From positions 35,263-99,262 of the forward strand of contig JADFZM010000001.1 of NCBI GenBank assembly GCA_015232535.1: a stretch of DNA of 64,000 bases. The letters are read 5' to 3'. Of the stretch, positions 8,276 to 40,960 are shown in pieces. This DNA is from Candidatus Omnitrophota bacterium. GTDB taxonomy: Bacteria > Omnitrophota > Gorgyraeia > Zapsychrales > Zapsychraceae. Within the stretch, counting starts at the first letter, position 1; the number at the start of each line of letters is the position of its first letter. The translations under genes were made by a program, and so were the position numbers. The notes beneath the pieces were generated by a model, which was given only the letters and a program-made list of their open reading frames with translations, was not told where the DNA came from and ran no database searches.

Positions 8276-8325
8276 TTTTATTAAATTGTTGAAATCGTTT
8301 ATATTGTTAAGCTGTTTGATCAAGG

Positions 8326-9483: not shown

Positions 9484-10970
9484 GATTTGATCAATCCGGC
9501 AACCGTATGTTCTTTTGCCGAATGTATCTGCCTTATCCCGATTTTCTTGAGCATCCCGGTTGTGACAGGGCCGATAGAATAAAACGGGGTCTCTTCGGTT
9601 AAGGAGCCGTTTATATTGCTTGGAATATTGGCAAAGAATGTTTTAACTGATTTAGGGCTTAAAAAGAATATTCCGTCGGACTTCTTGGCGAGGGCCTTGG
9701 CTATCCTTGTTTTATCGGGCTGCCCTTCAATGTTATACACTGTGCAATCGGTTAGCTTAGCCCCGGCTCTAATTAAAATTCCTTTTAGATAATCGCGGTC
9801 AAGGCTTGTGCGTAAAAGAGCGATATTTTTATCATTAATACCTTTATTTCTCAGAGCTATGGCTAAATTCCTGGTGGTGAACTTATCCGGCATAAGCGCC
9901 GGGTTTATACCGAATTTTATGAATTCTCCCGCTGTTCCTGACCCGACGCAAGCAATCCTTCCTTTTAGCAGGGTTTTATTTCTGTTTAATGCAAAAAATC
10001 TCTTCAGAAAATAATATACGCCGTGTCGGGAGGTAAAAACAAGCCAGTCAAAGGCCTTAATATCGGCGATTATGTTATCAAGGTATGATGTGTCCTTATT
10101 TGGAACGACTTTTATCATCGGTAGTCGTTCAACCTTAGCGCCTAATGATTCTAACCCGAGGGAAATATCATTGTTTAATGTTTCGCTGGCTGTTGAGATA
10201 AAACTTTTGTTTGAAAGAGGTTTTAAGTTAGGATTCAGGCGGTAAGCAAGCTTAACCGTATCGCCTATAACACAGATAGCCGGAGCTTTTAAATCAGCGG
10301 ATTTATTGGCGATCCGAGCTAAATTAGACATAACAACTTTTTCTTTATCCGTCGTGCCACTTTGAATGACAGCGGACGGAGTTTTAGGGTCTTTACCGAA
10401 GGCGATGAGTTTATCGGTTATTGATTTAAGGTTAGATAATCCCATCATGATTACTAGAGTTCCCGAGAAATTGGCGGCGTGTTTCCAGTTTATGCTTTCT
10501 TTTTCTTTAGACGGGTCTTCGTGGCCGGTTAAAACCATAAAACCGCTTGAAACGCCACGGAAAGTGAGAGGTATCCCGCACACTTCGGGAACAGAATAAA
10601 AAGAGCTTACTCCCGGAATAACTTCGCAATCAATATTGTTTTCTCTTAAAAACAGCATTTCTTCCTGGCCGCGGCCGAAAATAAAAGGATCGCCGCCTTT
10701 AACTCTGGCGACTGTCTTGCCTTTTGAGGCAAAAGATAGGATGGTTTGGTTTATCTTTTCTTGATCTATCGATCGTCCCTTTTCTTTTCCTACAAATTTT
10801 AAGATTGCGGATGGCTTGGCATATTTTAATATGTCTTTGGAAATAAGCCGGTCGAAAAGGATAACGTCTGATTTCTTCAGGCATTCAACGGCTTTGAGGG
10901 TTAAAAGCTTAGGGTCCCCCGGTCCTGAGCCGATCAAATAAACTTTTCCATTTTTTATTTTATTATTCAT
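9462..10970 (-). CDS. cobA: Uroporphyrinogen-III C-methyltransferase fused to uroporphyrinogen-III synthase
   Basis: N-terminal half has the SUMT signature (VYLIGSGPGDPKLLTLKA ... VARVKGGDPFIFGRGQEE); C-terminal half is HemD-like (AFDWLVFTSRHGV). Confidence 0.88.
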   Translation of the reverse strand: MNNKIKNGKVYLIGSGPGDPKLLTLKAVECLKKSDVILFDRLISKDILKYAKPSAILKFVGKEKGRSIDQEKINQTILSFASKGKTVARVKGGDPFIFGRGQEEMLFLRENNIDCEVIPGVSSFYSVPEVCGIPLTFRGVSSGFMVLTGHEDPSKEKESINWKHAANFSGTLVIMMGLSNLKSITDKLIAFGKDPKTPSAVIQSGTTDKEKVVMSNLARIANKSADLKAPAICVIGDTVKLAYRLNPNLKPLSNKSFISTASETLNNDISLGLESLGAKVERLPMIKVVPNKDTSYLDNIIADIKAFDWLVFTSRHGVYYFLKRFFALNRNKTLLKGRIACVGSGTAGEFIKFGINPALMPDKFTTRNLAIALRNKGINDKNIALLRTSLDRDYLKGILIRAGAKLTDCTVYNIEGQPDKTRIAKALAKKSDGIFFLSPKSVKTFFANIPSNINGSLTEETPFYSIGPVTTGMLKKIGIRQIHSAKEHTVAGLIKSCLENSL

Positions 10971-11862
10971 TAATCTTTTTCAACTGTATCTTTAAACTGG
11001 CGATTAAATTGTCTGTAATTCCTGAGGCATTGTCTTTCGCCCCTTTTTCACTTTCCTTTATGAAACATTTTGCTTTTTCGCTGTAATATTTCGCGTTTAT
11101 TGAAAAGTTGCCTTTAATAAATTTGGCATAAACACCGAACGGTGTCCGGCAACCTATTCCTAAAGCTTTCAATACATTTCTCTCTAAAAGAGCGGATTTC
11201 TCCGTTTCAATACAAGAGCTTTTTCTAAGAATACTGTTTAAATCCTTATCGTTATCCCTTGTTTGAGCGCAAATTATGCCTTGCCCGGCCGCAGGGACAA
11301 AGCTTTCGCTGTCGAAATACCGGACGATCAAGTTTTCATATCCTAATCGTTTCAAACCGCAAGCAGCCAATATAAGCCCGTCGTATTTGCCCCCGTTCAT
11401 CTTTCTGATGCGGGTATCGATATTCCCTCTTATGGGCAATACAATCGCTTTGGGCTCGATTTCTTGTATAAAGTACATCCGACGCGGGCTGTCTGTGCCG
11501 AGCTTCAAACCCGCGAGTTGGCCCGATTTTAAACCATCGCGCAGTACCAGGCAATCTCTTCGGTCTTCTCTTTTGGCGAAACAGGACAACTTAGTGCCTT
11601 TTTGAAGTTTCACCGGGACATCTTTTAAACTATGCACGGCGCAATCAATTTCTTTATTTATAAGTGCTCGCTCGATTTCTTTTGTGAAAATGCCTGTTCC
11701 GATAGCCGTAATCTTATTTTTGCGGTCCCGGTCGCCTTGGGTCAGGATAGTTTTTATCCGGTAATCAAGGTTTACATTCTTTCTTTTTAAAAAGGCTATG
11801 AATTCAAAGAGCTGTTTATTCGCTAAAGCGCTTTTCCTTATACCAAAGATTATTCTGCGCAT
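10963..11862 (-). CDS. hemC: Hydroxymethylbilane synthase (porphobilinogen deaminase)
   Basis: KTILTQGDRDRKNKITAIGTGIFTKEIERALINKEIDCAVHSLKDVP motif block. Confidence 0.9.
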   Translation of the reverse strand: MRRIIFGIRKSALANKQLFEFIAFLKRKNVNLDYRIKTILTQGDRDRKNKITAIGTGIFTKEIERALINKEIDCAVHSLKDVPVKLQKGTKLSCFAKREDRRDCLVLRDGLKSGQLAGLKLGTDSPRRMYFIQEIEPKAIVLPIRGNIDTRIRKMNGGKYDGLILAACGLKRLGYENLIVRYFDSESFVPAAGQGIICAQTRDNDKDLNSILRKSSCIETEKSALLERNVLKALGIGCRTPFGVYAKFIKGNFSINAKYYSEKAKCFIKESEKGAKDNASGITDNLIASLKIQLKKINE

Positions 11863-12905
11863 AAAAGTAACGAAGGAAGTACGCCTGTGTTCTTTTTCTG
11901 ATCGAGGTACATTTCCCTTCGGATTATCTCCTCCGCTTTGTTCGCTTCGATCGAGCGGCTATAGAGTGTTCTATCAATTACCGGCGATAAGTCATCGATA
12001 TTGTATAGCTTTACACCGGCAATATTCCTAACCGCTTCCTCAACATTTCGAGGCACGCCAAGATCGACGAAAATAATTCTTTTATGACGGCCGTGCAATA
12101 TCGCGCTCACCATATCTTTGCTGATAATATGAGGAGCGGCAGTGGCGGCGACAACTATATCTGAAAGCGCGATTTCTTTTGCTATCTTTGAGAAATCGGT
12201 AACGCGCACGTTAAGCTTAACTGCGGCGTTTTTGGCTTTTGCTATATCGCGGTTTGTAACAACGATTTCCTTAAGGGGAAGCTCGGATAGTTTCTTTGTT
12301 GTCATAACGCCTATTTTCCCGGCGCCGATTACAAGAATTCTTTTATTCGATAAATCCTGTTCCTTTTTAATAAGGTCGACAACAACTCCGGATATCGAGG
12401 TAACTCCGCGGGATATGCCGGTCAAGCTGCGAACTTTCTTCCCTATGCGCAGGGAATCCTGAATAGTTTTATGCAGTATAGAGCCTATTGCCTTTGATGA
12501 ATCGGCTTTTTCATAGGCCTTTTTGATCTGGCCGAGGATCTGGTTTTCTCCTAAAACCATTGAGTCCAGGCCGCTCGCCACCCGGTTAAGGTGTATGACC
12601 GCCTCTTCGTTGGTTTTATTGTAGAAGTAATGCTCAATATAACTTTGCGGTAATTTATGCGTGCGGCAGATAAAATTTGTCAGCTTAGCGGTAATTTTAG
12701 AAATGCTTTCTCCTACGGCATATATCTCGACCCGGTTACATGTTGAGAGCATCAAAGCCTCTTCTATATCCAAATTGGATGATAGTTCGCGGTAATATTT
12801 ACTCAGCGATTTATCCTCAAAGCTGAATTTTTCGCGTATTTCTAGCGGGGCCTTTTTGTGGTTTGTCCCGATAAGAACAATATTTAAGTTATTGCTGATA
12901 GGCAT
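11850..12905 (-). CDS. hemA: Glutamyl-tRNA reductase
   Basis: LSTCNRVEIY catalytic Cys motif; NADP-binding LVIGAGKIG. Confidence 0.9.
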   Translation of the reverse strand: MPISNNLNIVLIGTNHKKAPLEIREKFSFEDKSLSKYYRELSSNLDIEEALMLSTCNRVEIYAVGESISKITAKLTNFICRTHKLPQSYIEHYFYNKTNEEAVIHLNRVASGLDSMVLGENQILGQIKKAYEKADSSKAIGSILHKTIQDSLRIGKKVRSLTGISRGVTSISGVVVDLIKKEQDLSNKRILVIGAGKIGVMTTKKLSELPLKEIVVTNRDIAKAKNAAVKLNVRVTDFSKIAKEIALSDIVVAATAAPHIISKDMVSAILHGRHKRIIFVDLGVPRNVEEAVRNIAGVKLYNIDDLSPVIDRTLYSRSIEANKAEEIIRREMYLDQKKNTGVLPSLLLCAE

Positions 12906-13677
12906 GATGGCTTACCATAAACAGGCTTACGCCGAAGAAAGTTGTTAACATGGCTAAAAATCCCACAACCGAGATGACCGATAGCCAAAAGTGTTTAAGT
13001 TTAAATGCTTTTTCCAGGATCACAGCCAAAGCGTAAATTATAAGGGTGATTAGCGCCCAGGTCTCTTTTGGGTCCCAGTTCCAATAAGTTCCCCAGGCTG
13101 TATGCGCCCAAATCGAGCCGGTCGCTATGCCGAAGAATAAAAGTATTACTCCGAAAATAATAAGGCCGCTATTCAAAGGCTGAAGGCCTTTTGTGTCTTT
13201 GCCCCTTTTCTCGGCGATTATCGAATAAACGCTTATAGCAAAAGAAATCCCAAAGGCGCTGTAACTTAAAATAATTGCCGGAACGTGTATTCCCAGCCAA
13301 AAACTTTTTAAGAGCGGGTTAAGCGGTTGGATTGTTTTATCCAGCGTTAGGTCGTATATTAAGATAATATCAAACAATAAAAACGCCAATCCCTGTATGA
13401 TCTTCCCGGTATTTTCTTTGATAAAAATGATATAGACAGCGCTTAAAAGCCAGGCGTAAAAATAAGTGATCTCAAAAAGCGAGACCATTGGCAGATGCCC
13501 CTGTTCGCGGTACCTTATAATAAGGTAAAAGAAACCGGCGGTTAAAGCGACTATCAGCCATTGCTTTGAGTAAGTGAAAAAAACGGGCTGCTTTTTGGAA
13601 ACGAAAAGAAGATACAAAACAGTCCCGATCAGATAAAAGAATGCGGATGTATAGAAAAATAATATGTTATATTGCAT
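12889..13677 (-). CDS. CcsA/HemX-family cytochrome c assembly membrane protein
   Basis: Polytopic membrane protein with Trp-rich WWD motif (WAHTAWGTYWNWDPKETWALI) and conserved His residues; it occupies the hemX position of the hem operon. Confidence 0.78.
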   Translation of the reverse strand: MQYNILFFYTSAFFYLIGTVLYLLFVSKKQPVFFTYSKQWLIVALTAGFFYLIIRYREQGHLPMVSLFEITYFYAWLLSAVYIIFIKENTGKIIQGLAFLLFDIILIYDLTLDKTIQPLNPLLKSFWLGIHVPAIILSYSAFGISFAISVYSIIAEKRGKDTKGLQPLNSGLIIFGVILLFFGIATGSIWAHTAWGTYWNWDPKETWALITLIIYALAVILEKAFKLKHFWLSVISVVGFLAMLTTFFGVSLFMVSHHAYQQ

Positions 13678-14122
13678 TAGCTAGTTTATCCCTAATTGCT
13701 TTTGCTTTTGCCGGGCTTTGGCCGTTTGTAGAAATACCTATGGTCAGCCCTTTTCTTTTTAATATTGCCGGCATTATTATTGAGCCCGGCCCGCTTTTAT
13801 CTACTACATTGACTAAGGTATTCGCTTTATTAGCGTCGGATAATACTTTCTTATTGACTTTAGCGTTATCTGTTGCCGCTACTATCAATTTATATTTCTT
13901 TAATGAAATATTCTTAGGATAAAGGGATTTTATGCATTTTATCTTCCCTTTTGACCTTAAACGTTCAATCGGCGCGATTATTTCCGGGCTGATACAGGTA
14001 ATTTTTGCCCCGAAATTTCTGAAGACCGATATTTTCCTATAAGCTACTTTTCCTCCGCCGACGACCAAACAATTTTCGCCTTTTACCTTGAGGCATACCG
14101 GCATATAGCTGCATAATTTCAT
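13667..14122 (-). CDS. Precorrin-2 dehydrogenase / sirohydrochlorin ferrochelatase (SirC/CysG N-domain type)
   Basis: Rossmann GGGKVA motif (CLVVGGGKVAYRKI); about 150 aa; first gene of the heme operon. Confidence 0.78.
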   Translation of the reverse strand: MKLCSYMPVCLKVKGENCLVVGGGKVAYRKISVFRNFGAKITCISPEIIAPIERLRSKGKIKCIKSLYPKNISLKKYKLIVAATDNAKVNKKVLSDANKANTLVNVVDKSGPGSIIMPAILKRKGLTIGISTNGQSPAKAKAIRDKLANAI

Positions 14123-14132: not shown

Positions 14133-15323
14133 TTACCTCTTTTTTAAAATAATATGACAAACATTACATTTCCCGCGGTATTCATGCGGGGAAACAGCTC
14201 CTTTTAATATAGGAGGAGGATTAGGCAAAATATCTCCCGCATCAGTCGGCAGCTGTCCTCCTGTTTTCATAATAATATGACAGGCGGTACAAGGCTTATT
14301 ACGGCTTCTGTGCGGGCTAAGAGCTCCGGGTGTTATCGGTTGAGCGGCCTCGTTTTGTGAAAACCCTAAACTTCTTTTTGATGAAATAGTATATTCGATG
14401 ATTTGCCCTCTGCGGGAAACTATAACCTTAGCCTTAAACCTGTTTTTTACCATTCTGGTTGCTTCAGTAAAAGCAACTAAATCCGGGGTGGCTATCTTTT
14501 CAATTCCAACAACCATATCTCCGGCCAAAACTCCCGATTCAGCCGCCTCGAGAGATATCTCATCGATCAACAACCCCTTTGTATTCGGCGGGATATTGAA
14601 TTCCGTGGCTAACTCAGGCGTAAGGGGAATAAGCTCCATACCGAGCCAATGCCCTTCGATAAGTTCTTTCGATGCCGCCCCTTGCTCTTTAGGAGTAGGC
14701 AGCTGCAAATTAGGGTCAACCGGAGCCGCATTCATTGTGCCGGCTTCGGCTGTTTCTGCCGGAGAATTATTGGCAAAAGCGATTTGATGAGCCGCAGGAT
14801 CGGCATTGTTTTGCTGTTGGGGTTTAGCTTCTAAGGGTACAGAGTTAGAATCCCCGGGAGCGTTTTTACCCGTAACGCCCATATCAAGGTTAAAAACGCG
14901 CTTGATATTGTCATGAATGCCTAATTTGTTTTCCAGGGTTATATAAAGCGGCTGGCCGTTTCTTAATATATCTAAAAGAGCGCCTTGGTCCAAGCTTGTA
15001 TCTTTCGTAACCTTTAGAAAGTCGGATATTTTCTTTGTTTTCTTATTATTGATCGATTTTATAAGGTCTCCGCTGCGTACACCCGAACTGTAAGCCGGAT
15101 CCTCACACCAATTTACAACAACCCCAGCTTCATCTTTCGGTATATAAAATTCCATGGCATTAGCCGGTGTGATATCGCTTACCGACATTCCGGCCCACTC
15201 TGCCTCACCTGCCCCGATGTGCATCAGCGCCGCGAGAAAAATAAGGCCTATCAAGCAAACGGATAATATAAGGAAGAACCTTTGCTTGTTTTTATGTTTA
15301 TATTCGGCTAAGATGTTAGGCAT
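14133..15323 (-). CDS. Membrane-anchored PDZ-PDZ protein with two C-terminal CxxCH heme motifs of magnetochrome type (MamP / MamE-Cter-like)
   Basis: N-terminal TM, two PDZ-like segments (GVRSGDLIKSI; GVLAGDMVVGIEKI), then SPHRSRNKPCTACHIIM and SPHEYRGKCNVCHIIL. Confidence 0.6.
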   Translation of the reverse strand: MPNILAEYKHKNKQRFFLILSVCLIGLIFLAALMHIGAGEAEWAGMSVSDITPANAMEFYIPKDEAGVVVNWCEDPAYSSGVRSGDLIKSINNKKTKKISDFLKVTKDTSLDQGALLDILRNGQPLYITLENKLGIHDNIKRVFNLDMGVTGKNAPGDSNSVPLEAKPQQQNNADPAAHQIAFANNSPAETAEAGTMNAAPVDPNLQLPTPKEQGAASKELIEGHWLGMELIPLTPELATEFNIPPNTKGLLIDEISLEAAESGVLAGDMVVGIEKIATPDLVAFTEATRMVKNRFKAKVIVSRRGQIIEYTISSKRSLGFSQNEAAQPITPGALSPHRSRNKPCTACHIIMKTGGQLPTDAGDILPNPPPILKGAVSPHEYRGKCNVCHIILKKR

Positions 15324-15878: not shown

Positions 15879-17411
15879 TTATCTGGGTTTCTTACCGATT
15901 CCGACTTTAACCGAGCTTGGTGCTTGCTGTTGCGTTGTATTCCCCATTATCTGATGACAATTTGAGCAGACTCCCCTATATTCGTGCGTCATTGCAGCAT
16001 TAGGCGAAATAGGCGGCGCTGTTACTTGCACTTGTTGAGCTGCCTGAGCTACCGGAGCAAAGCCCTGATTATTGAAGTTTTGCTGGGCATTATATTGATT
16101 CGGGTAATAAGCACCTCCACGGGCCATGATCTGTTTGCAGTTAGGGCAACGGGGAAATTCATTGGCGCCGTTTTGTGAATACATCCTCCAATTGCAATTT
16201 GGACAAAGGAAATAACCGAGCGATTCCTGTCCTTGCCAGAAGTTTGGCTGGTTAACAGTCGGATTCGCTTGCATTTGGTTTTGCATTTGATTCGGCATTT
16301 GATTTGCCGCTAATTCCGGCAATTGCGGCCAACCGTTATTTGCCATATCTTTTGCCATCTGTGATCCGCAATTCGGGCAATTAGGATAACCATTGCCTGT
16401 GTTGGCAGCTTTTAATCTCCAGTTGCAAGAGGGACAAACAAATGGCTGTTCTCCCCACCCAAATGCAACTTGTGTCCCCGGGTTGAGTTTATTCATTGTA
16501 TCAGGATCGGGTAAATTCATCCCTTGTACCATTGCCCCTTGCATCCATCCCTGGCGCGGAAGCGGACAGACCGGACGCATTACATTCATATTCTGCATCC
16601 CCCATCCTGCATTCATCGCATCCGGCATCAATTGTCCGGCGGTAGGATATACTTGCCCGATAGGATTCATATCCTGAATTCCGAACGCTACACCCTGCCC
16701 GGGAATTTGCTGTTGCATTCTCAAGCGGCAATTGGGGCAAATCGGGCATATGTTAGAGTTGTTATTTCCGGCTTGCTGAAACTTACAATTGGGGCAGTAA
16801 AACATACAGCCCCCTCCCTGTCCTTGGCCGGCAAAACCGGCTTGGGCTACGGGCATACTATTCGCTTGCATTTGGCCTGGATTAATGGGTAATGAAGCTT
16901 GGCCGATCCTTGCCTGACGGTAAAGGTTAATTACTTTCTTGGTCGAGCCCGTATACCCGCCGAAAACTCGAATTCCGAATTGCATCAGAATATTATAACT
17001 TTGCGGGTCGATATTTCCGACAATAACCGCTTCCTCTCCTTTTCCCGCCACCAGATAAGCGATTTGCGGGTTAGGAACAGTGCCGTAATAAAGGTTCGGG
17101 ATCGCCTCCTCGAGTTTCTTTGTAAGAGGGTTTATTACTAAGAAGAATTTGGCTTGCTGCAATGAAGGCGCGACATTCGAATTAAAAGTGGAATTATCAG
17201 CGGCAACAACGATTTTTCCGCAAGCCGGATTACCTTGATTTTTAGACTTAATGTCAGGTGAGAATATGGCGTATACGCCAATAAGTAAAACAAGGATAAT
17301 AGAGGCAAAGATAAAATATGTGTTCATATCCATATCCTTTACCCTGGCTTTAAAATCCTCAACGGTTATCGTAGGGATTTTGCTTGTTTTGGCTTTCATA
17401 TTCTTTATCAT
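15879..17411 (-). CDS. Chimeric membrane protein: TM anchor, NifX/NifB-C-like (Nitro_FeMo-Co-type) domain, Gln/Asn/Met-rich region with three CPxC...CPNC knuckle pairs, and a C-terminal magnetochrome-type CxxCH
   Basis: FFLVINPLTKKLEEAIPNLYYG ... AYLVAGKGEEAVIVGNIDPQSYNILMQFGIRVFGG; CPNC/CPSC pairs spaced 11-13 aa; THEYRGVCSNCHQIM near the C-terminus. Confidence 0.6.
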   Translation of the reverse strand: MIKNMKAKTSKIPTITVEDFKARVKDMDMNTYFIFASIILVLLIGVYAIFSPDIKSKNQGNPACGKIVVAADNSTFNSNVAPSLQQAKFFLVINPLTKKLEEAIPNLYYGTVPNPQIAYLVAGKGEEAVIVGNIDPQSYNILMQFGIRVFGGYTGSTKKVINLYRQARIGQASLPINPGQMQANSMPVAQAGFAGQGQGGGCMFYCPNCKFQQAGNNNSNICPICPNCRLRMQQQIPGQGVAFGIQDMNPIGQVYPTAGQLMPDAMNAGWGMQNMNVMRPVCPLPRQGWMQGAMVQGMNLPDPDTMNKLNPGTQVAFGWGEQPFVCPSCNWRLKAANTGNGYPNCPNCGSQMAKDMANNGWPQLPELAANQMPNQMQNQMQANPTVNQPNFWQGQESLGYFLCPNCNWRMYSQNGANEFPRCPNCKQIMARGGAYYPNQYNAQQNFNNQGFAPVAQAAQQVQVTAPPISPNAAMTHEYRGVCSNCHQIMGNTTQQQAPSSVKVGIGKKPR

Positions 17412-17448: not shown

Positions 17449-18036
17449 TCATTTTAACATCGGCGAATAAGGTATAGCCGGACCGAAGACCGGAGAACCG
17501 AGCTGCCAGCTACCTTTATTTGTGCCCATTAAAGGCCCGTATTGATAATCGAAGGGAATTGTTATGAATATCTTCTTCCCATCGCGATATACATCCAGGA
17601 AAATACCTCCGGAGTATTTCACATTATTAGCCAGGTCGGCAAAATCCTGGGCGGATTTTATAGGTTTTTGTCCGATGGAAACTATCACATCCCCTGATTT
17701 AATCCCGTACTTTTGAGCAGGGCCAAGGCCTTCGTCCAGTACAAGCACCCCTTTTATCTTTTTTGGAATTTTGAATTCTTTCCTTAAACTGCGGGAAAGA
17801 TATATCACATTCATACCGATCCAGTTCATACTATCGCCTGGTTCGATCAGAGTATTTTTAACGGCAGTTGTCGGTTCGGTTCGTTCAGGCGCTTCGGGAA
17901 TAATTTCTAAAGATGATAATATCCAGCAGAAGGCTATAATAGAGAAGATAACAATACCGACAAACATTACCGGTTCCTTTTTCGCGAATTCCTTAACCTT
18001 GATTTTAAAATTATTGAATTCTTTATTTTTTTTCAT
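17449..18036 (-). CDS. Membrane-anchored PDZ domain protein
   Basis: N-terminal TM, PDZ core (KGVLVLDEGLGPAQKYGIKSGDVIVSIGQKPIKSAQDFADL). Confidence 0.7.
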   Translation of the reverse strand: MKKNKEFNNFKIKVKEFAKKEPVMFVGIVIFSIIAFCWILSSLEIIPEAPERTEPTTAVKNTLIEPGDSMNWIGMNVIYLSRSLRKEFKIPKKIKGVLVLDEGLGPAQKYGIKSGDVIVSIGQKPIKSAQDFADLANNVKYSGGIFLDVYRDGKKIFITIPFDYQYGPLMGTNKGSWQLGSPVFGPAIPYSPMLK

Positions 18037-18039: not shown

Positions 18040-19467
18040 TTATTGTATTTTTACCAGAATTTCGTCTGTTTTGCCGTTTCTTAATATTCTAACGTTTACC
18101 CCGTCTCCGCTTTTAAAGTGCGCGACTACATTCCTTATATCCTCGGCTGATTTAATTGGTACACCGGCTATAGCGACAACTATATCTCCCCTTTGTATCC
18201 CGGCGAAACTAGCCGGCGATTCGTCCAATACCCTATTTACCAAAACCCCTTTCCACGGAGATATTTTGAATTGCCGCGCGATTATCTCGTTTATAGGCAT
18301 AACTTCTAATCCGAAACGTACCGGAAGCGGCGCTCCGGGCGCGGGATTGGTTGTGGGCAAAGCCGCGGCCAGCATACCTTTTCTATCAACCGGAAGAGGG
18401 AAATTTCTTTTTAAAGCCTTTCCTAAGAAATCTTTGCAATCATTTATCGGAATAGCGAAACCTGTGCCGCTAAAAACACCGGTCGGAGCGTAAATTGCCG
18501 TATTAATGCCGATGACATCTCCGTTTAAGTCAACCAGCGGCCCACCCGATGAGCCGCGATTTATAGGAGCATCGGTTTGGAATAAATTTTGGTAACGGAT
18601 TCCTTCAATCAAGATCGATTTTCTTATCCCGCTAATGATACCGCTGGTGACGGTTTGCTCTATCCCGAAGGGGCTTCCAACGGCAACAACGTAATCGCCT
18701 ATTTGGCTGAAACTGGAATCGCCTAATTTTACCTCGGGGAACGGGCCGTCCGCTCTTAATTTTACGAGCGCTAAATCTAAATTCGGTTCCTCCGCTACGA
18801 TGTCTGCCCTTATATCGCGGGAGGGATTGCCAAAGACCGTAACTATAATATCGGTCGCGTCTTTTGTTACGTGATAATTAGTGAGCACGTAGCCGCGTTC
18901 ATCGATCACAATCCCTGCTCCGACATTTTCGTAACCTTTATTCTCGATGAATTTATCAATGGCACCGTCGAAGGGCGGAACAAATTGCATGTTTTGCGCA
19001 TCGGCAGGTTTCCTTATGTTCGTTCGAACAACCCTGATCGCGTGTATATCGCATACGGAAGGAATTATGGCGTTTACAGCATCTTTTAATGAATTTTGAA
19101 ACTTGCTATCGGTATTCGCGACTAACTGCATACCGCCGTTAGGAGTAGCTTTAGTTATTGCCGCGACTTTATAATTGGAAGACGGATTTTGATTTGGCTG
19201 ATAAGGAACACCTCCGTTAGGAAGAGCTTGGGTTATCGCCTGTGCCTGAGTATAGGCTGCTTGAGTGACCGGGGACGGAAATTGGGGCTCTCCTGCCTTT
19301 GGCATCTTGATTTTTGCCCTGGTATTTACAGTTTCGGTCTCAATTCCCTGGTTTATGTCTTCATGCCGCATTATTACCCAGAAAAGGAGCATAACCCCGA
19401 CTACGGCAAGCGCCGCAATCCAGGGCCCGAGAGGCTTTGTGCAAAATGAATCGTTAGGGTCTTCCAT
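18040..19467 (-). CDS. HtrA/DegP-family trypsin-like serine protease with C-terminal PDZ and N-terminal TM anchor (MamE-like)
   Basis: Intact catalytic triad: LTNYHV (His), DLALVKL (Asp), NRGSSGGPLVD (Ser); PDZ GIQRGDIVVAIAGVPI; no CxxCH in this polypeptide. Confidence 0.85.
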   Translation of the reverse strand: MEDPNDSFCTKPLGPWIAALAVVGVMLLFWVIMRHEDINQGIETETVNTRAKIKMPKAGEPQFPSPVTQAAYTQAQAITQALPNGGVPYQPNQNPSSNYKVAAITKATPNGGMQLVANTDSKFQNSLKDAVNAIIPSVCDIHAIRVVRTNIRKPADAQNMQFVPPFDGAIDKFIENKGYENVGAGIVIDERGYVLTNYHVTKDATDIIVTVFGNPSRDIRADIVAEEPNLDLALVKLRADGPFPEVKLGDSSFSQIGDYVVAVGSPFGIEQTVTSGIISGIRKSILIEGIRYQNLFQTDAPINRGSSGGPLVDLNGDVIGINTAIYAPTGVFSGTGFAIPINDCKDFLGKALKRNFPLPVDRKGMLAAALPTTNPAPGAPLPVRFGLEVMPINEIIARQFKISPWKGVLVNRVLDESPASFAGIQRGDIVVAIAGVPIKSAEDIRNVVAHFKSGDGVNVRILRNGKTDEILVKIQ

Positions 19468-19492: not shown

Positions 19493-19714
19493 TTAAAAAG
19501 TAAACTTTCCTGCTTCAACCGGCATTTCAGCGCCTGGAACCGGATAGGCTATAGGTGTCGCTGATGTATGCGAAGTTGCTCTTTTGTGTTTCCTGCCTTG
19601 GCCGGGATTATTGCGAAATTCATAAAATATCGCGGTTGAAATAATCACGCACACGGTAAAAATTATCAAGAACCCAACCCAAGGGTTTAGGCATTTTTCC
19701 CTGTTGACTATCAT
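19493..19714 (-). CDS. Small single-TM protein with basic His/Arg/Lys tail
   Basis: WVGFLIIFTVCVIISTAIFY helix then GRKHKRATSHTSA; 73 aa. Confidence 0.35.
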   Translation of the reverse strand: MIVNREKCLNPWVGFLIIFTVCVIISTAIFYEFRNNPGQGRKHKRATSHTSATPIAYPVPGAEMPVEAGKFTF

Positions 19715-19729: not shown

Positions 19730-19900
19730 TTACTTCTTGTCTTTTAATAATTTTAACCCGGTGTTCAAGGCGATCAGTCCTCCGACCAGAAGGGCTAATG
19801 GTATGAAGCCTCTTAAAAAGTCGCCGAAATTATCCCACCATCCGATGATTCCCATTAATCCGAGTACCGCCGCTATTGCCCCACCGATAACATGTGCCAT
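19730..19900 (-). CDS. Unannotated 56 aa two-helix membrane protein, MamI-like (below the ORF-track cutoff)
   Basis: Translation MAHVIGGAIAAVLGLMGIIGWWDNFGDFLRGFIPLALLVGGLIALNTGLKLLKDKK; strong RBS AAAGGAG 7 nt upstream of the ATG (rev-comp of 19898-19900); stop TAA at 19730-19732. Confidence 0.5.
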   Translation of the reverse strand: MAHVIGGAIAAVLGLMGIIGWWDNFGDFLRGFIPLALLVGGLIALNTGLKLLKDKK

Positions 19901-19956: not shown

Positions 19957-20265
19957 CTATCCGTTCTTAAAACGGACTCCGAAGCCGCCTCTGGGATTTT
20001 CCCATTTGATCGCGCCATCCGTACATATAACCCGACAACTTCCACATTCTAAACAATTTTCGTAGGCAACTTCTATTGTCCCATGATTCTCTTCGTATGA
20101 TTTGGCCGGGCACACAATAAGGCAAGCTTTGTGCTGGCATTTCTTGCATATTTTCTTATTTATCGTAATATGGCTTATCTTATCCTTTTTGTTTTTTACC
20201 AAAAAAAGCTTATCTTCAATGGATAATTTCTTGTTCTGCTTGTTTTCTTGTTCTAAGGTTTTCAT
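19957..20265 (-). CDS. fixX: FixX-type ferredoxin-like protein
   Basis: C-terminus [32 protein letters not shown] matches the FixX family. The start at MKTLEQ gives an ATGA overlap with the fixC stop; the ORF-track start at 20289 is also possible. Confidence 0.78.
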
Positions 20266-21578
20266 ATTAAATTGCTCCATGCTCCCCACATTTCACGGGC
20301 TAAGCGGGTAAATTTCACGTTTTTCTTTACTTTCCTAAAAATCTCTTTCTTAACGGCGGTCTTAGGCTTCTCAGAAACCCGGAAATAATCGACTAAAATA
20401 TCGTTCATTAAAGTAGGATAATCATTGATCAGCGACTTATTTTTGTGCAGGAATGAGAGGAAGTTCTTGCAGTTCTTAATGTCTTGCAAGACAAAGCTAT
20501 CTTTGAGCTTTTCTTCGTAAAGGGATAAAGTTTGCGAAGAAAAATCGTTTTTACGGCGCGCCTCCATGATAGTATCGGCCGCATATATTCCGGAGGCCAT
20601 CGCTAAGTTTACTCCTTCATGGAAGAAAGATGTGTTGAGTAATCCGGCCGCATCCCCAATTACTAGAAGCCCGTCGCGATAAAGCTTTGGCAAAGAGTCA
20701 AATCCGTCGGAGGGTATCATATGCGCCATGTATTCGACAATTTCAGCGCCTTTCAATAAAGGAGCGATCGAAGGATGGGATTTAAAATCCTCCAAAATAT
20801 CATTGGGGTTTTTTCCGTTTCTGTTTTTTATAAAGTCGCTAAGCGAAAAACCGACTCCCACCGAAAGGCTGTCTTTATTCGTGTAAATAAAACCGTTTCC
20901 TAAAAGGCCTTGAACTGCTTCGCCGAAATATTCAAATGCCGCGCCCTGCCTTCCGGCCAGGCCGAAACGGTCTTCAATAACATTTTGGGGTAGGCGCATA
21001 TTTTCTTTAATCGCGATGGAGCGGCGTTCGGGGTCGATTTTCTTTCGAAGCTTGGCTTTTTCGGTGAGTATAGAATTCGCGCCTTCGGCACAGACAATCA
21101 TATCCGCCAAAAGATTATCTTCATCTCCCGAGCCGCTTGTTATACCGACAATCTTGCCTTTTTCGTAAAGAAAATCACTAACACAATAATCGGTTATGAT
21201 GCTTACTCCGGCCCCTTCGGCTTTTTTGGCCAGCCATCCGTCCATTGTTCCGCGCAAGGTAATAAAGGAGTGATTGTAAGGCTTCTCATTAAAGGCGCTG
21301 GGCATCATGTCAAAGGCTAATTCGCTTTTCCCGGCTAAAATAGAGAATTTTCTTTTTCCCACGAATCTTTCCCATGGGGCTTCATCAAAAAATTCCGGAA
21401 AGATTTTTTCCATGATGCTGGAAAAGAAAATGCCACCGAACATATTTTTAGCTCCGGGGTATTCTCCCCTTTCTATAACTACGACTTCCGCGCCTCTTTT
21501 GGCAAGGGAATAAGCGCAGGTAAGGCCCGCTGGCCCAGCCCCGACAATTATCACCTCAACTTTATCATTTTGGCTCAT
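20262..21578 (-). CDS. fixC: FixC-type FAD-dependent oxidoreductase (ETF-quinone oxidoreductase family)
   Basis: N-terminal FAD fold [32 protein letters not shown]; [28 protein letters not shown] ... VIGDAAG block typical of FixC. Confidence 0.85.
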
Positions 21579-22150
21579 AACAAGAATTTATTTAAAGGTA
21601 CTTTAGCGATCCTGTTTTTTAATGAAGCAAAATATTTCCCCGATATAAACAATCCCTTCTTAAGTTTTCCTCCTAAGTCGGCGCTTTCATCTTTTAGAAT
21701 ATGGCTATCGGTTTTTATAATTGTATCTTGTTTAGCATTTTGTATTTCATGGTATTCTTTTGGAAAGTACACCTTAAGATAACCGCATTTTGGGCAGTCA
21801 ATACCGCACTCTACTTTAAGGCCCGCATACTCTCTTAAGCTCAAGAAACAACGGTTTATCTTTTCTTTATATACAAGGCAATCATTGCAATTGTGCTTAT
21901 TTGATCCAAGGCTCTCCTTTGCTTCCCAGCAAGGTATGATTTTAACCTGCGGCTTGATGTTGTTTTTGATGCGGTTCTTGAAACTTTTTTTACTAAGCAA
22001 AGATACTATGCTTTCTTTAGGGATCCTTTGATGCCCGCCAAGCGTGGAGACGGCTTTAATTTTCCCTTGTTTTATCCAGTGCAGAACGCTAAAGCGGCTG
22101 ACGTGAAGTATTTTAGAGGCCTGAGTGGTAGTAAGATATTCTGGCTGCAT
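21575..22150 (-). CDS. Excisionase/MerR-type HTH DNA-binding protein with Cys-rich C-terminal domain (putative metal/redox-responsive regulator)
   Basis: TTTQASKILHVSRFSVLHWIKQGKIKAVSTLGGHQRIPKESIV HTH; then CNDC ... CGIDCPKCG cysteine pairs; first gene after a 667 bp AT-rich leader. Confidence 0.6.
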   Translation of the reverse strand: MQPEYLTTTQASKILHVSRFSVLHWIKQGKIKAVSTLGGHQRIPKESIVSLLSKKSFKNRIKNNIKPQVKIIPCWEAKESLGSNKHNCNDCLVYKEKINRCFLSLREYAGLKVECGIDCPKCGYLKVYFPKEYHEIQNAKQDTIIKTDSHILKDESADLGGKLKKGLFISGKYFASLKNRIAKVPLNKFLL

Positions 22151-22817
22151 TAAATTTATATATAATTAGTTAAAATTGCGATAAATAAGATGCGTGAATT
22201 ATAACAACCATATAAAAATTTATCAAGAAATATTTTTCTCTTCAAAAACTTTTTAGTTGTTGAAATTGTTGATGTTAAGCGCCTAAAATAGGATTAAAAA
22301 TACGTCGGAGTGATGAAATTTTATCTAATGTTAAGCGGTTTATTCTAATTGTCGCATGTTTTTACGCGTTTCTATAAAAGGTAATATTTAGATATTAAAA
22401 ACCTATTTCTCATTAAAATTAGCTATCCTTATTTGTTCTAATTCGTTTATTCACTTAAATTGAGTAAAATTGAGAAGTTTTTAATTATTTTATTGAAGCA
22501 TAAAACAACTGAATTGGGAATACTGAAAAATTGGCTTTAAATGTAGTGTAACACTGTAGGAAGCGAAACAAAGCATAATATTTTCCTGTAGCAGATAGTT
22601 TGTACATGGTTATTAGATATGATAAGACAATGAGTGTAACTTAATAGAGTCATTCAAATGAAAGTTGGAACATGGCAAGAATATCTAGCTGTTGCTTATT
22701 CAAATGGCAGCGTCATATTAAATAAAGTAGTTTGAATATGTTGGTTTTCCGCATCTCAAGTATAATATAAATTGTTGAAATTGTTTAATCTTTGATATAT
22801 TTGTCGACGGAATTGAA
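22151..22817 (-). promoter_or_regulatory. Long AT-rich intergenic leader/promoter region carrying two copies of the ATTGTTGAAATTGTT-type motif
   Basis: 667 bp without credible ORF; motif copies at 22254-22278 and 22768-22790; TATAAT-like hexamers present. Confidence 0.4.
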
Positions 22818-28990: not shown

Positions 28991-30196
28991 TTATTTAGCT
29001 TTGGAACGGCTTAATAGCTGAGAGTTTATCAGGCAACCTTTTGAAACGCAATTAAAAGGGTCTTTGGCTTGTCTAATTTCGTTTATGGGAACCACCATAT
29101 CGATGTTCTTAATTTCCTGTTTTACAACATCTAGGAATCCTCCGACCATTGATGTGCCACCGGCGAAAACAATGTCTATCGGCTCATCGAACTGAGGCGC
29201 TTTATCCGGGCGACGGAAAACTTGAGAAATTTGCCCTAGGAAATAACGGATGTAGTTTTTGTAAAACAGGGCTATTGCTTCTTGCTCCCTTGTTTCCGGT
29301 TTTAAAATGCTCATCCCCTTTTCCTTAACCAAGCCGGCTTTGTTCGGAGATATGCTTAGCACATTCGAAGACTGGAGGTCTATCATATCGCCTCCTTGCG
29401 CTATCGAAAATTCCATTACGACAACCGATTTATAAGCGACGCATATATTTGTCATGCCGCCGCCGCAAGATACCCCAATACCGGTGAACTTCTTCTCCGC
29501 AAGTTCGGATAGTATTACCGCAAAGCCTTCGTTTATCGGACATACTTTGTAGCCGAAACAGGAAAGCATCGTTTCGATAACATTCCGGTGATAATTAACG
29601 TCCATCATGCTGTCCACCGGTTGCGCCGGAACGCAGAAACAGCATATCTCGTTAGGGACTCTCGGTTCCCACAATAAACCCTTCACTATCATATTCATTA
29701 TAGGTATTGCTTCGCGTTCCAACGGATTAATAACTCCCACGTTCATCGGCCTTTGGGTGTTGCGGTCAAAATAATTCGAGAAATCGAAAGCGTCTTTGCC
29801 TAGGATGCAAGGCCTTTCTTTTATCCTTTGCTCGGATATGTTCATTTTCTGCAAAAGTTCTTTGGTTGAGTCATCATCGCGGACAAAAAGAAACGCGTTA
29901 CGGCTATATTTTACCTCTACACCCTTTGCTGTTTCGCGGGAAGAAACGATGTTGGCGGTTCCCATATCAAGGCCGACGCCTAATAAATTAATGTCAGTAT
30001 CAACATCCCCGCTTTGGGAAGGTATTTGAGCAACATCATTTTGGGAGGGGATTTGCGCTTTCTCAACGATAGTCCGGGGTTTTGAAGGCTGGCGGCGGTC
30101 TACAGCATGAATCGCTTTTTTAATTGGTTTTTTATTCTTAAGTTTCTTATTGATCGTTTTTTTTGGCATTGGTCTTTTTCTTTCTTCTAAAGGCAT
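28991..30196 (-). CDS. Actin-like ATPase (MamK/MreB/ParM superfamily)
   Basis: Phosphate-1 loop LGVGLDMGTANIV, GIGVSCGGGMTNI, adenosine motif DIVFAGGTSMVGGF; basic low-complexity N-terminal extension. Confidence 0.75.
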   Translation of the reverse strand: MPLEERKRPMPKKTINKKLKNKKPIKKAIHAVDRRQPSKPRTIVEKAQIPSQNDVAQIPSQSGDVDTDINLLGVGLDMGTANIVSSRETAKGVEVKYSRNAFLFVRDDDSTKELLQKMNISEQRIKERPCILGKDAFDFSNYFDRNTQRPMNVGVINPLEREAIPIMNMIVKGLLWEPRVPNEICCFCVPAQPVDSMMDVNYHRNVIETMLSCFGYKVCPINEGFAVILSELAEKKFTGIGVSCGGGMTNICVAYKSVVVMEFSIAQGGDMIDLQSSNVLSISPNKAGLVKEKGMSILKPETREQEAIALFYKNYIRYFLGQISQVFRRPDKAPQFDEPIDIVFAGGTSMVGGFLDVVKQEIKNIDMVVPINEIRQAKDPFNCVSKGCLINSQLLSRSKAK

Positions 30197-31181
30197 TTTC
30201 AGCGATCGCGCCTATAAGGCAACCGCGGGCAATTGCGTACAAAGGGTCATCGGCCAGAAAGACATTATTGATTTGAACGGGGAATTTTGTTTTCTCGATC
30301 TCACTTTTCAATATTTGGGTAAATCCTGTCGGAAGGGCTGTCCCTCCGGCGCATACGATCTCAATGGGCTTTTTAAAAACCGATCCCATAGATTTTTCTT
30401 CCAGCCTGGCGCGCAGGCATTGTACGGCATAACGAATAAGCTCTTTGTAATATATCGTTATTGCTTTCTGGGTTCTGTCTTGAGGGTTTTTAAGGTTTAT
30501 CCCTTTTTCTTTAACAGAATTGACTTGGCCCTGGCGTATGGCAAGGGCTTTGGCGGCATTTTCGTCTATCCAGTCTCCGGCACGGTTAATGGAAAAACTA
30601 TCGAGTGAATTAGCCCTATCGCTTACGCAAAAATTAAGCATTCCACAGCCGCAGGAAATCCCTATACCGGTAAAGCCGAATTCGGCCAAACTGCTATATA
30701 CGACAGCCATCCCTTCATTAACCGACTTAGCCTTGTAACCTAAAGACTCAATGATCTCCTCTAAAATACCCGTGTGATAGACGACGCGGAATTCATTTAT
30801 AAAAGCTTCGGCCGGAATAGAGTAATAACAAATAGAATTGTTCTCGGAAGCTTTGCCTAAAAGGGCGGTTACGAGTATTTTAAGAATAATCTCGGCTTTT
30901 TCTTCTTTTGGATTAAGGACTCCGTCCTGCATCGGACGGCTTAGGGCAGAACCCATCGTATTAGCCATTTTGTAAGCAGATTCCGCTAAGATGTATAACT
31001 CTTCTCCGATTTCGGCGTATTGCATCCCTTCTTCTTTCAAGAACGAGGTCATTGATTGCTCGATCTTTACTTTTAGAAAGGCATGGCGCAGTTTCTTTAA
31101 AACAATTTTTTCATCTTGAGAAAGGGAAGCGCTGATAAGGTTCATTGTCCCTATATCAATGCTTTTTATTTCTTTTATCAT
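30147..31181 (-). CDS. Actin-like ATPase (MamK-like), second tandem paralog
   Basis: IKSIDIGTMNLIS, GIGISCGCGMLNF, IEIVCAGGTALPTGF motifs. Confidence 0.75.
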   Translation of the reverse strand: MIKEIKSIDIGTMNLISASLSQDEKIVLKKLRHAFLKVKIEQSMTSFLKEEGMQYAEIGEELYILAESAYKMANTMGSALSRPMQDGVLNPKEEKAEIILKILVTALLGKASENNSICYYSIPAEAFINEFRVVYHTGILEEIIESLGYKAKSVNEGMAVVYSSLAEFGFTGIGISCGCGMLNFCVSDRANSLDSFSINRAGDWIDENAAKALAIRQGQVNSVKEKGINLKNPQDRTQKAITIYYKELIRYAVQCLRARLEEKSMGSVFKKPIEIVCAGGTALPTGFTQILKSEIEKTKFPVQINNVFLADDPLYAIARGCLIGAIAENAFRRKKKTNAKKNDQ

Positions 31182-32000: not shown

Positions 32001-32336
32001 TCAGCTTAGTTCTTTTAATGCGGTTTCACGATTATCATGGATTGAGATCATCTTATGCATTTTTGTTATTTCAAAAATGCCGCGGATTTCTTTGTTTACG
32101 TTGCAGATGTTGAATTTACCGTTAGCTTTTTTTAGCATTTGCGTCATTTCGATTAATGTTGCCAAGCCGGAACTGCCGACAAAGCCGACTTTCTCAAAAT
32201 CAACAATCACTTTGCTGGCACCGGCTTTAAGCAATTTAATAAACGAATCCCTTAGCTTTATGGAATCTTCAACGTTGAGCTCTCCGTCAAGCGCTACAAC
32301 ATTGATCCCGTTAATCAAATCAACTTTAATTTTCAC
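32001..32336 (-). CDS. STAS-domain anti-sigma-factor antagonist (RsbV/SpoIIAA-like)
   Basis: LDGELNVEDS ... VDFEKVGFVGSSGLATLIEM with phosphorylatable Ser. Confidence 0.85.
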   Translation of the reverse strand: MKIKVDLINGINVVALDGELNVEDSIKLRDSFIKLLKAGASKVIVDFEKVGFVGSSGLATLIEMTQMLKKANGKFNICNVNKEIRGIFEITKMHKMISIHDNRETALKELS

Positions 32337-32749
32337 TTCTCCTCCTTTTTCTTGTTGAGGAATTTAACCATTTTAATGGTTCGCCCCTCATTCATGAACT
32401 CAAATTTATCCATGATTTTCTCTATCAGGAATATCCCCCGTCCGCTTAGCCTCTCTAAGTTCTTTGAGGTTAGAGGGTTAGGTATATTCTTATAGTCGAA
32501 ACCTGTTCCCTCATCAGACACCTGCATGATCAAATTTCCGTTTTGAATATTTATTTCCAATTTTACTTTAAGGTCGGGATTAAGCTTATTGCCGTGCTTG
32601 ACCGCATTGACCATCGCCTCATAAAGGGCCAGTTTGATATTAAAAATAGCTCCCGGGTCCAGGCCGATGTCAGAAAGCTTAGCCAGCACCGAAGAAAGCA
32701 ATTCGTTTATCAATTCAGTTTTCGAGGGTATGGTTTTTGATATATTCAT
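32333..32749 (-). CDS. Anti-sigma regulatory factor / serine kinase (RsbW/SpoIIAB-like, HATPase_c)
   Basis: EAMVNAVKHGN ... SDEGTGFD ... GRGIFLI motifs; 4 nt overlap with the STAS gene. Confidence 0.8.
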   Translation of the reverse strand: MNISKTIPSKTELINELLSSVLAKLSDIGLDPGAIFNIKLALYEAMVNAVKHGNKLNPDLKVKLEINIQNGNLIMQVSDEGTGFDYKNIPNPLTSKNLERLSGRGIFLIEKIMDKFEFMNEGRTIKMVKFLNKKKEEK

Positions 32750-32828
32750 GTCGAATCTCTTAATTTAAAATAATTTTATACATATTACCAAATTAACCCA
32801 AATATGTAAAAGGATAAGTTGGCGAATT

Positions 32829-38760: not shown

Positions 38761-38987
38761 AACTCCTTTTGAGGTATAATTTCGATAAGGTGGGCTAAAC
38801 TTCTATCTAGTGCCAAGCGGCATCCTCCTAAACCGACAATTAGGTTATTCCCTGAAGTGTATTGCATTATCTCTACTTCTTTGCCTGAAACAAAACCTAA
38901 TTCAGCTAAAAATATTTTTAAATCAAACTTACCGCGTAACCCGACTACAACTCCCTTGTTTCTAAGCCCTAACATTGAAAGAGGCAT
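38757..38987 (-). CDS. feoA: FeoA family protein
   Basis: SH3-like FeoA fold, LAELGFVSGKEVEI; 4 nt overlap with feoB. Confidence 0.85.
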   Translation of the reverse strand: MPLSMLGLRNKGVVVGLRGKFDLKIFLAELGFVSGKEVEIMQYTSGNNLIVGLGGCRLALDRSLAHLIEIIPQKEL

Positions 38988-40258: not shown

Positions 40259-40960
40259 TTATGATTTCTCGCAATAGAATGCGCATACTGTTCCGCCAAG
40301 CATTTTATCTGTTGATACAATTTTTAACTTTGACAAGGCTATGTATTTTACAATATCTTCGGGTTTAACAAAAGATTTTATTGAAGATGAAAGATATGAA
40401 TACGCCTTATATGATCCGCCGAATATATTAGCGATAATAGGAATTAAATTCATTAAATAATAGTGAAATATTCTTCCGAAGAATGAATTTGTCGGCGGAA
40501 AGAACTCTAAGATCGCAAGATTCCCCCCTTCCTTAAGCGAGAATGATATATCTTGCAAGGCCGTTAAAGGGTCGGGTAAGTTTCTTAGGCCAAAGGCTAT
40601 TGAAGCAATATCAAAAGTACCCTCCCGAAAAGGCAAATTATAAATATCGGCTTCTACCGGGATAATGCATTCTTCCTTCTTCGATCGGATTATTTTAGAT
40701 TGAGCTTTTATCAGCATTTCATGGGAGAAATCAACGGAGTAAATTTTAGAGTGCTTAAGTATTTTTGCGAGCTCTAAGGATATGTCGCAAGTCCCGCAGC
40801 ATAAGTCCAGGACTTGCTTATTTCTTAGCGCGGAAAAACTCTTAACCAACTTTTTCCTCCACCTCCTATCAAGGTTAAAGCTAAGTACACGGTTCAGGAG
40901 GTCATAGCGCGCAGCTATAGCAGAAAATAGTTTTGATAAATTGCGTTTATTAGTGTCCAC
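40259..40960 (-). CDS. Class I SAM-dependent methyltransferase, UbiE/MenG family
   Basis: LSKLFSAIAARYDLLNRVLSF N-terminal signature, VLDLCCGTCD motif I. Confidence 0.75.
   Translation of the reverse strand: MDTNKRNLSKLFSAIAARYDLLNRVLSFNLDRRWRKKLVKSFSALRNKQVLDLCCGTCDISLELAKILKHSKIYSVDFSHEMLIKAQSKIIRSKKEECIIPVEADIYNLPFREGTFDIASIAFGLRNLPDPLTALQDISFSLKEGGNLAILEFFPPTNSFFGRIFHYYLMNLIPIIANIFGGSYKAYSYLSSSIKSFVKPEDIVKYIALSKLKIVSTDKMLGGTVCAFYCEKS

Follow-up and report, generated by a model that had tools for sequence, protein, structure and literature searches.

It has long been asked how magnetotactic bacteria control the Fe(II)/Fe(III) ratio while their crystals grow. Previous studies have focused on lumenal magnetochrome cytochromes and, in Magnetospirillum, respiratory enzymes that are encoded outside the magnetosome gene cluster (MGC). 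Here, a fixC-fixX gene pair (FixCX) inside the MGC of a Candidatus Omnitrophota bacterium was analyzed. The pair lies in a 64,000-bp stretch of DNA, the window (GenBank assembly GCA_015232535.1, contig JADFZM010000001.1, positions 35,263 to 99,262 of the forward strand), which is part of a 112,777-bp contig and carries nearly all of its genes on the minus strand. The closest described system is EtfABCX or FixABCX, the Fix system of diazotrophs, a membrane-associated, bifurcating NADH:(ferredoxin + menaquinone) oxidoreductase. In EtfABCX, the high-potential electron of the flavin of the electron transfer flavoprotein (ETF) travels through two [4Fe-4S] clusters of EtfX to the FAD of EtfC, the membrane-associated subunit, and from there to menaquinone (PMC10734219). 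FixC and FixX of the window are full-length homologues of EtfC and EtfX of this complex in Thermotoga maritima (7KOE); they carry the FAD motif and eight cysteines, and their genes are adjacent in the order C then X. Unlike EtfABCX, the unit in the window has no etfA or etfB, is joined by a gene for a DNA-binding protein, lies in a magnetosome operon instead of a nitrogen-fixation or catabolic context, and its FixC belongs to a separate clade. ETF:ubiquinone oxidoreductase of mitochondria and bacteria (ETF-QO; 2GMH) is a member of the same superfamily and shares the logic of electron flow from ETF via Fe-S and FAD to quinone. However, it is a single polypeptide with one [4Fe-4S] cluster, whereas the Fe-S part in the window is a separate protein with two predicted clusters. 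As redox proteins encoded in a magnetosome cluster, FixC and FixX also resemble Mad9 and the magnetochromes MamP, MamE, MamT and MamX, which are thought to tune iron valence. The magnetochromes are lumenal c-type haem proteins, whereas FixC is a flavoprotein; Mad9 of Desulfobacterota and Nitrospirota clusters has been described as an Fe-S protein of the ferredoxin type that may act in redox reactions (PMC9840458).

On balance, we lean towards the view that FixCX is a magnetosome-dedicated quinone-reducing module. As judged from its genes, the pair is a strong candidate for feeding electrons into magnetic-mineral formation. The fixC gene (20262..21578, minus strand) encodes a FixC/EtfC-type FAD-dependent (quinone) oxidoreductase of 438 amino acids, and fixX (19957..20265, minus strand) a FixX/EtfX-type ferredoxin-like subunit of 102 amino acids. 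Both follow the gene of an HTH_17 regulator (21575..22150, minus strand; 191 amino acids), the first gene of the trio. The fixX open reading frame (ORF) was initially listed as 19957-20289(-), with a GTG start and 110 amino acids. The true start is almost certainly the ATG at 20265, because this ATG lies within the fixC stop (ATA TGA) and gives an ATGA overlap. The resulting 102-residue protein is an exact match to the NCBI protein MBF0384295.1. An ATGA overlap is also found where the regulator gene stops and fixC starts. Downstream of fixX, mamI follows after a gap of 56 nt, with an AGGAG ribosome-binding site ahead of it. These junctions bear out the tight co-directional linkage described in an earlier, sequence-only reading of this DNA. 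Together with the ORFs and family matches, they also confirm that the pair is real, intact and located inside a magnetosome operon. The window proteins are identical to NCBI entries MBF0384294-297 (locus tags HQL27_), in which fixC and fixX are annotated only generically. An AT-rich intergenic spacer of 667 bp precedes the regulator gene and contains a sigma-70-like promoter candidate (22198..22226, minus strand; TTGATA-17-TATAAT plus a TG extension), at a distance of 48 nt from the regulator ATG. This candidate agrees with 11 of the 12 consensus positions, the best in the 10 kb scanned, and is a consensus match only, with no evidence of function. The main magnetosome operon is best explained as starting with these three genes, regulator, fixC and fixX (regulator-fixC-fixX-mamI-mamE-...-mamP-like). 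Searches of the window for Rfam families and tRNAs gave no non-coding feature.

FixC matched the NCBIfam FixC models with an E value of 1e-98. Its closest solved structure is EtfC of T. maritima (7KOE_C; E 5.8e-88, residues 7-419). The match to ETF-QO (2GMH) was far weaker (E 1e-28), and a Pfam match to ETFQO_UQ-bd was weak. Geranylgeranyl reductases were also recognized, with E 8e-14 for the PDB entry 3OZ2 and E 3e-33 for TIGR02032; the latter score (115.7 bits) does not reach the cut-off of 158.8 and is much lower than that against the FixC models. The FAD-binding Rossmann motif GxGxxG at residues 13-18 is part of VGAGPAG (residues 11-18), and the C-terminal domain PF26311 (ETF-QO_FixC_C) is found among the precomputed domains of an identical protein (P0001) and of homologues. 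FixC is predicted to act as a quinone reductase and to associate with the membrane. A gene for a UbiE/MenG quinone C-methyltransferase in the window (40259..40960, minus strand; TIGR01934 204.5 bits, cut-off 158; Pfam Ubie_methyltran) is a contextual sign that the organism synthesizes an isoprenoid quinone, which FixC would be expected to use as its substrate. Among solved structures, FixX was most similar to T. maritima EtfX (7KOE_D; E 4.5e-21), and it matched NCBIfam FixX with E 9e-14. Its motifs Cx2Cx4Cx3CP and Cx2Cx2Cx3C align with those of T. maritima EtfX, and all eight cluster cysteines are kept. The eight cysteines are retained in every MGC FixX; the first motif is gone in some non-MGC FixX. 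Among the 25 best of 43 FixX matches, there was no magnetosome-named NCBIfam model.

In the protein database, the FixC proteins nearest to that of the window come from Omnitrophota. Look-ups of the genomic context at 79%, 73% and 64% FixC identity gave the same gene order each time. The order HTH17-FixC-FixX-MamI-small-MamE-PDZ-NifX/MCR-MamP-like is identical in six other Omnitrophota metagenome-assembled genomes (MAGs; loci L009-L014) with a FixC identity of 64-79%. At 54% and 51% identity, the homologues stand at the head of a differently organised MGC, which starts with FixC-FixX-Zn-peptidase and continues in both cases with a trypsin-like protease, a CDF transporter, rhodanese, MamI, MamQ (LemA) and more CDF genes. 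The locus at 54% additionally carries HTH17 ahead of FixC, a PDZ protein encoded separately and MamA, a TPR protein. No ETF was found within 8 kb of FixCX at either of these two loci. A homologue at 50% identity is part of a textbook etfB-etfA-fixC-fixX operon.

A wider scan with a FixC alignment against one genome per species returned 80 loci, and the full set comprised 84 loci once duplicates had been taken out. Classification by phmmer against window and reference proteins gave 7 Omnitrophota MGCs (window included), 17 MGCs of a Planctomycetota type and 60 non-MGC loci. Omnitrophota and Planctomycetota contributed to the 24 MGC loci, as did MAGs binned as Anaerolineales or Aegiribacteria. 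The published magnetotactic Planctomycetes MAGs MAG_11118_pl_115 and MAG_18080_pl_157 account for two of the loci of the Planctomycetota type. In a neighbour-joining tree, all 24 MGC-linked FixC proteins formed one clade that contained no non-MGC locus and was recovered in 200/200 bootstrap replicates, with support counted by splits. The Omnitrophota and Planctomycetota-type subclades were supported by 99.5% and 100%, respectively. Addition of 119 metagenome protein clusters enlarged the clade to 127 tips, again without any non-MGC locus. A signature cysteine, Cys21, is present in 125 of these 127 tips, compared to 1 of 76 outside the clade. The tie between the pair and its neighbour genes proposed by the sequence-only reading is upheld, as the position is kept in all seven Omnitrophota MGCs and the MGC-linked FixC proteins are a clade of their own. 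Given its conserved presence and position in several lineages and its separation from non-MGC homologues, FixCX can be regarded as an MGC component.

The MGCs of the Planctomycetota type provide the nearest comparison. They share with the window a sister FixC subclade of ~50% identity, an HTH_17 protein with the same seven cysteines, the position at the MGC head and a FixX with eight cysteines. In 13 of their 17 loci, published magnetotactic Planctomycetes MAGs among them, EtfB-EtfA stand directly upstream of fixCX, usually with HTH17 in between, and the order is EtfB-EtfA-(HTH17-)FixC-FixX-Zn-peptidase-MamE-CDF-rhodanese-MamI-MamA-MamQ. EtfA of these clusters carries an N-terminal two-cluster ferredoxin domain (2x[4Fe-4S]) and scored 435 bits against CarE (6FAH) and 291-315 bits against other bifurcating ETFs (7QH2, 7KOE, 4KPU), compared to 134-187 bits against full-length non-bifurcating ETFs. 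Likewise, EtfB reached 212-227 bits against bifurcating and 72-98 bits against non-bifurcating ETFs. By similarity, the ETFs of the Planctomycetota-type MGCs thus appear to be of the electron-bifurcating kind. The window, in contrast, has neither this EtfB nor this EtfA, lacks the Zn-peptidase and the rhodanese, and contains haem-biosynthesis genes inside the cluster. Planctomycetota-type MGCs (L017-L029 and L069; e.g. L025:7289-12335) were seen to begin with EtfB, the ferredoxin-domain EtfA, HTH17, FixC, FixX and Zn_peptidase_2. Their rhodanese gene, which lies between the genes for a CDF transporter and MamI, points tentatively to sulfur handling and would agree with the greigite affinity that has been proposed for these clusters (PMC7449369).

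The sequence-only reading had stated that no ETF genes are present in the 64 kb. When EtfA and EtfB of a canonical etfBA-fixCX locus (L007) were used as tblastn probes, no match in the window had an E value below 0.16. Pfam scans of window ORFs, which covered most of those of at least 100 amino acids and nearly all non-overlapping ones on the minus strand, found no PF01012 or PF00766. The absence from the window was thereby confirmed. A standard fixABCX context just outside it is excluded as well, the genes immediately upstream being those of the HTH regulator and a hybrid histidine kinase. In none of the seven Omnitrophota MGCs was an ETF found within 10 kb of FixCX. FixCX without a neighbouring ETF is, however, not rare as such: among the 60 non-MGC loci, 18 lack and 42 have an adjacent ETF. 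The implied independence from ETF is also unproven, given the bifurcating-type etfBA upstream of fixCX in most sister loci. Several ETF-less pairs of non-magnetotactic lineages have fixed contexts of their own, namely GrpE-DnaJ-FixC-FixX-pantothenate kinase in Spirochaetia and relatives, and molybdopterin oxidoreductase-FixCX-UbiA prenyltransferase in Dehalococcoidales (L036:4200-8340, L038:8176-12363, L043:7706-12672).

Because etfBA lie directly upstream in the majority of the sister loci, the MGC module was ancestrally probably ETF-fed. As far as the genes tell, a complete EtfAB-FixCX complex was most likely the ancestral form of the unit borne by the cluster, and it is best explained that the Omnitrophota lineage, the window included, kept only the half leading from FixX to FixC to quinone. 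A search with the Planctomycetota-type EtfA returned no Omnitrophica-named protein among the best 120 matches (down to 61% identity), few of which were named. This argues weakly against a mere relocation of the cluster-type ETF in Omnitrophota. The organism of the window may still use an ETF encoded elsewhere. A decay of the ETF-less FixC was considered and rejected, since Omnitrophota FixC proteins retain 95.5% of the 77 alignment columns with a conservation of 90% or more in ETF-linked FixC.

As a magnetosome-dedicated module, FixCX would sit at the membrane of the magnetosome or of the cell, on its cytoplasmic side. FixX would be reduced in the cytoplasm, by a ferredoxin or by an ETF whose genes lie elsewhere, and its clusters would hand the electrons to the FAD of FixC, which would reduce the membrane quinone pool. 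This route, the most economical one, keeps the known chemistry of the retained half. The quinone pool would in turn poise the lumenal magnetochrome cytochromes (MamP-like, MamE-like and NifX-MCR proteins), and these, once poised, would determine the proportion of Fe(II) to Fe(III) available for crystal growth. The reported midpoint potential of MamP is close to that of menaquinone, and coupling of quinone and magnetochromes would thus be thermodynamically sensible. A role of the pair in Fe(II)/Fe(III) balance may reasonably be inferred from association.

Several points weigh against this reading. For the electron donor there are candidates only, and these may include an ETF encoded elsewhere in the genome. 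That etfBA were lost in Omnitrophota rather than gained in the sister lineage is a parsimony argument only; indeed, four basal Planctomycetota-type loci also have no adjacent ETF, two of them with little upstream sequence. FixC scored below the cut-offs of NCBIfam models NF007542 (330.7 bits, cut-off 610) and NF007450 (327.6 bits, cut-off 466). These models were trained on enterobacterial FixC/YgcN of the E. coli type, and FixC of the window is a distant subfamily member relative to them. FixX likewise remained below the equivalog cut-off of NF011993 (51.5 bits, cut-off 166). The phylogeny is a neighbour-joining and not a maximum-likelihood tree (432 columns, Kimura distances), and its non-MGC relatives are limited to a sampling of 80 loci chosen by two peptide patterns. 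No cultured organism is known to carry the module, and the roles of all clade members are predicted from their genes. Furthermore, quinone biosynthesis is patchy in Omnitrophota (PMC10066038), and no gene linking quinol oxidation to the magnetochromes was recognised in the window.

The gene in front of fixC bears on a second way of using the pair. Its product is an HTH_17 (excisionase/MerR-like) DNA-binding protein (Pfam E 3e-10) with a weak match to the MamR model (21 bits, cut-off 100). The C-terminal region contains seven invariant cysteines (C74, C88, C91, C101, C115, C119 and C122), which are common to the window, the Planctomycetota-type MGCs and one Omnitrophota genome, and are missing in five shorter Omnitrophota versions. 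Pfam gave no match over this cysteine-rich region (residues 74-122), which may be a metal- or Fe-S-binding sensor domain. In an AlphaFold2 model from a 9-sequence alignment, the mean predicted local distance difference test (pLDDT) score was 53. The HTH_17 fold was confident (pLDDT 79-90), while residues 57-121 and 143-191 scored below 50 and the model is unusable there. In five of the seven Omnitrophota MGCs, an ApbE flavin-transferase gene was observed directly upstream of HTH17-FixC-FixX (L009:8385-9404 and the equivalent in L010-L013). The window lacks ApbE and has genes for an Hpt protein, an NMT1-type binding protein and the hybrid histidine kinase at that place instead.

In the reverse direction, FixCX could equilibrate with the quinone pool and send electrons outward via exposed clusters of FixX to a cytoplasmic acceptor such as Fe(III) chelates or to the cysteine-rich domain of the regulator. 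With the regulator as acceptor, the trio would serve as a redox sensor that switches magnetosome gene expression and not as an electron supply. EtfX contacts the ETF flavin in the 7KOE structure (PMC10734219), and without EtfAB the proximal cluster of FixX would lack its normal partner. The translational coupling of the regulator to fixC and the conservation of the seven cysteines in both MGC types agree with this. Nevertheless, we consider it unlikely: FixCX is kept in the five of seven Omnitrophota clusters whose short regulators lack the cysteine-rich region, the structure model of that region is of low confidence, and electron flow from quinol to an Fe-S cluster is uphill and thermodynamically unfavourable.

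Alternatively, FixCX could be a housekeeping neighbour that serves ordinary energy metabolism together with etfAB encoded elsewhere, in the oxidation of fatty acids or NADH to quinone, and has no role in the organelle. The frequency of pairs without adjacent ETF outside MGCs (for example GrpE-DnaJ-FixCX-PanK), the generic NCBI annotation of both genes and the restriction of the ETF scans to the window are compatible with this. However, the position at the operon head is conserved in seven Omnitrophota species and in the differently organised MGC type of other phyla. The coupling of fixC to the regulator and the short gap to mamI also speak against it, an exclusive MGC clade with full bootstrap support is unexpected for a housekeeping gene caught by chance, and this explanation is still less likely. 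Least probable is an ETF-independent prenyl reductase, in which FixC with a private ferredoxin saturates isoprenoid chains to tailor quinones or lipids of the magnetosome membrane, after the precedents of MenJ and of geranylgeranyl reductase with its ferredoxin: the homology to geranylgeranyl reductases, the UbiA neighbour of the orphan pair in Dehalococcoidales and the lack of ETF in the window speak for it, but the FixC models score far higher (330 versus 116 bits), the ETF-QO/FixC domain PF26311 is present, and etfBA beside the same genes in sister-clade MGCs favour genuine ETF-coupled chemistry.

The magnetosome-dedicated module can be extended to a wider scheme, which we put forward tentatively and with considerable doubt. 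EtfAB-FixCX may have been part of an ancestral magnetosome toolkit of Omnitrophota and the Planctomycetota-type, putatively greigite-related MGCs. As a cluster-encoded cytoplasmic electron source for redox control of the iron mineral, it would oxidize NADH to yield quinol and, in the complete version, also low-potential ferredoxin, and in Omnitrophota it would have been converted to an ETF-less FixCX with another donor.

FixCX/EtfCX is a known enzyme family and in this respect not a new kind of system. As far as could be determined, the exclusive MGC clade, the conserved place at the operon head and the complete EtfAB-FixCX units in Planctomycetota-type MGCs are new. The open literature yielded nothing on magnetosomes in combination with FixC, electron transfer flavoprotein or flavoprotein, although an earlier naming under mad genes is possible, and the papers on the MAGs and their supplements do not mention these genes. 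A cluster-encoded cytoplasmic electron source in uncultured deep-branching lineages was not described in the literature searched. The FixCX clade, MGC-exclusive among the loci sampled, and the EtfAB-FixCX of the sister clusters are a concrete, testable candidate for such a source. The proteins should be amenable to experiments: they are soluble or peripheral, could be expressed heterologously and have predictable cofactors (FAD and two [4Fe-4S] clusters), and the module could be included in or omitted from MGC transplantation. The Cys21/Cys163 signature of the clade offers a sequence marker for this MGC type in metagenomes. Moreover, the locus is a natural case for asking what feeds FixCX without ETF and, if the wider scheme holds, a natural example of an ETF-less FixCX at work.

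The genes that follow the pair, all on the minus strand, are those of a magnetosome cluster. MamI (19730..19900; NCBIfam MamI E 3e-13) is the first canonical magnetosome gene after the pair and has the same position in L009-L014. It is followed by a small membrane protein of 73 amino acids (19493..19714), which has phmmer matches at the same position in these loci and no Pfam or NCBIfam family match. Next come a MamE-like trypsin/PDZ protease (18040..19467; Pfam Trypsin_2 and PDZ; NCBIfam MamE 250 bits, below cut-off) and a PDZ-domain protein (17449..18036; Pfam PDZ_2) that is syntenic in L009-L014. A membrane protein with a NifX-like part and a C-terminal magnetochrome (c-type haem) domain is encoded at 15879..17411 (Pfam MCR E 2.6e-9, Nitro_FeMo-Co E 5e-5) and is a candidate downstream electron partner in the lumen. 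Two small proteins are encoded between it and a MamP-like PDZ protein with two magnetochrome domains (14133..15323; Pfam MCR x2 and PDZ; NCBIfam MamP 210 bits, cut-off 300).

Between the MamP-like gene and two CDF genes, a near-complete siroheme-dependent (Ahb) haem pathway is located inside the cluster (4060-14122(-)), with genes for SirC-like, CcsB-like, HemA, HemC, CobA/HemD, AhbC/NirJ1-like, HemB, AhbD-like, AhbA, AhbB and HemL proteins. The pathway appears to be dedicated to supplying the magnetochromes with haem. In the Omnitrophota MGCs L001 and L002, the block begins alike, with a SirC-like NAD_binding_7 gene and HemA after the MamP-like gene, and L001 also has CcsB-like, HemC and CobA/HemD genes there. 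Past the haem block in the direction of transcription, genes for the two CDF transporters, MamA and MamQ were found.

Upstream of the regulator, an ion-channel gene and the Hpt and hybrid histidine kinase genes are located alongside two tandem actin-like genes of the Volactin family (28991-31181(-) and 32333-34763(-)), which are probably of the MamK/Mad28 type. A partner-switching set, consisting of a CHASE2-SpoIIE phosphatase and a HATPase_c_2 anti-sigma-type kinase, adjoins the Volactin genes and is also present beside the MGC in L001 and L002. Further upstream of the MGC, an iron-handling group (36649-54073(-)) includes FeoB, Fur, UbiE/MenG, an ABC transporter, a P-type cation ATPase, VIT1 and a ferritin-like protein. 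Finally, three short ORFs of 46-77 amino acids at 59608-60421(-), in a 2.3-kb stretch without a longer ORF, have signal peptides of the lipoprotein type, in which a cysteine follows a hydrophobic stretch, and by eye resemble entericidin-like small lipoproteins.

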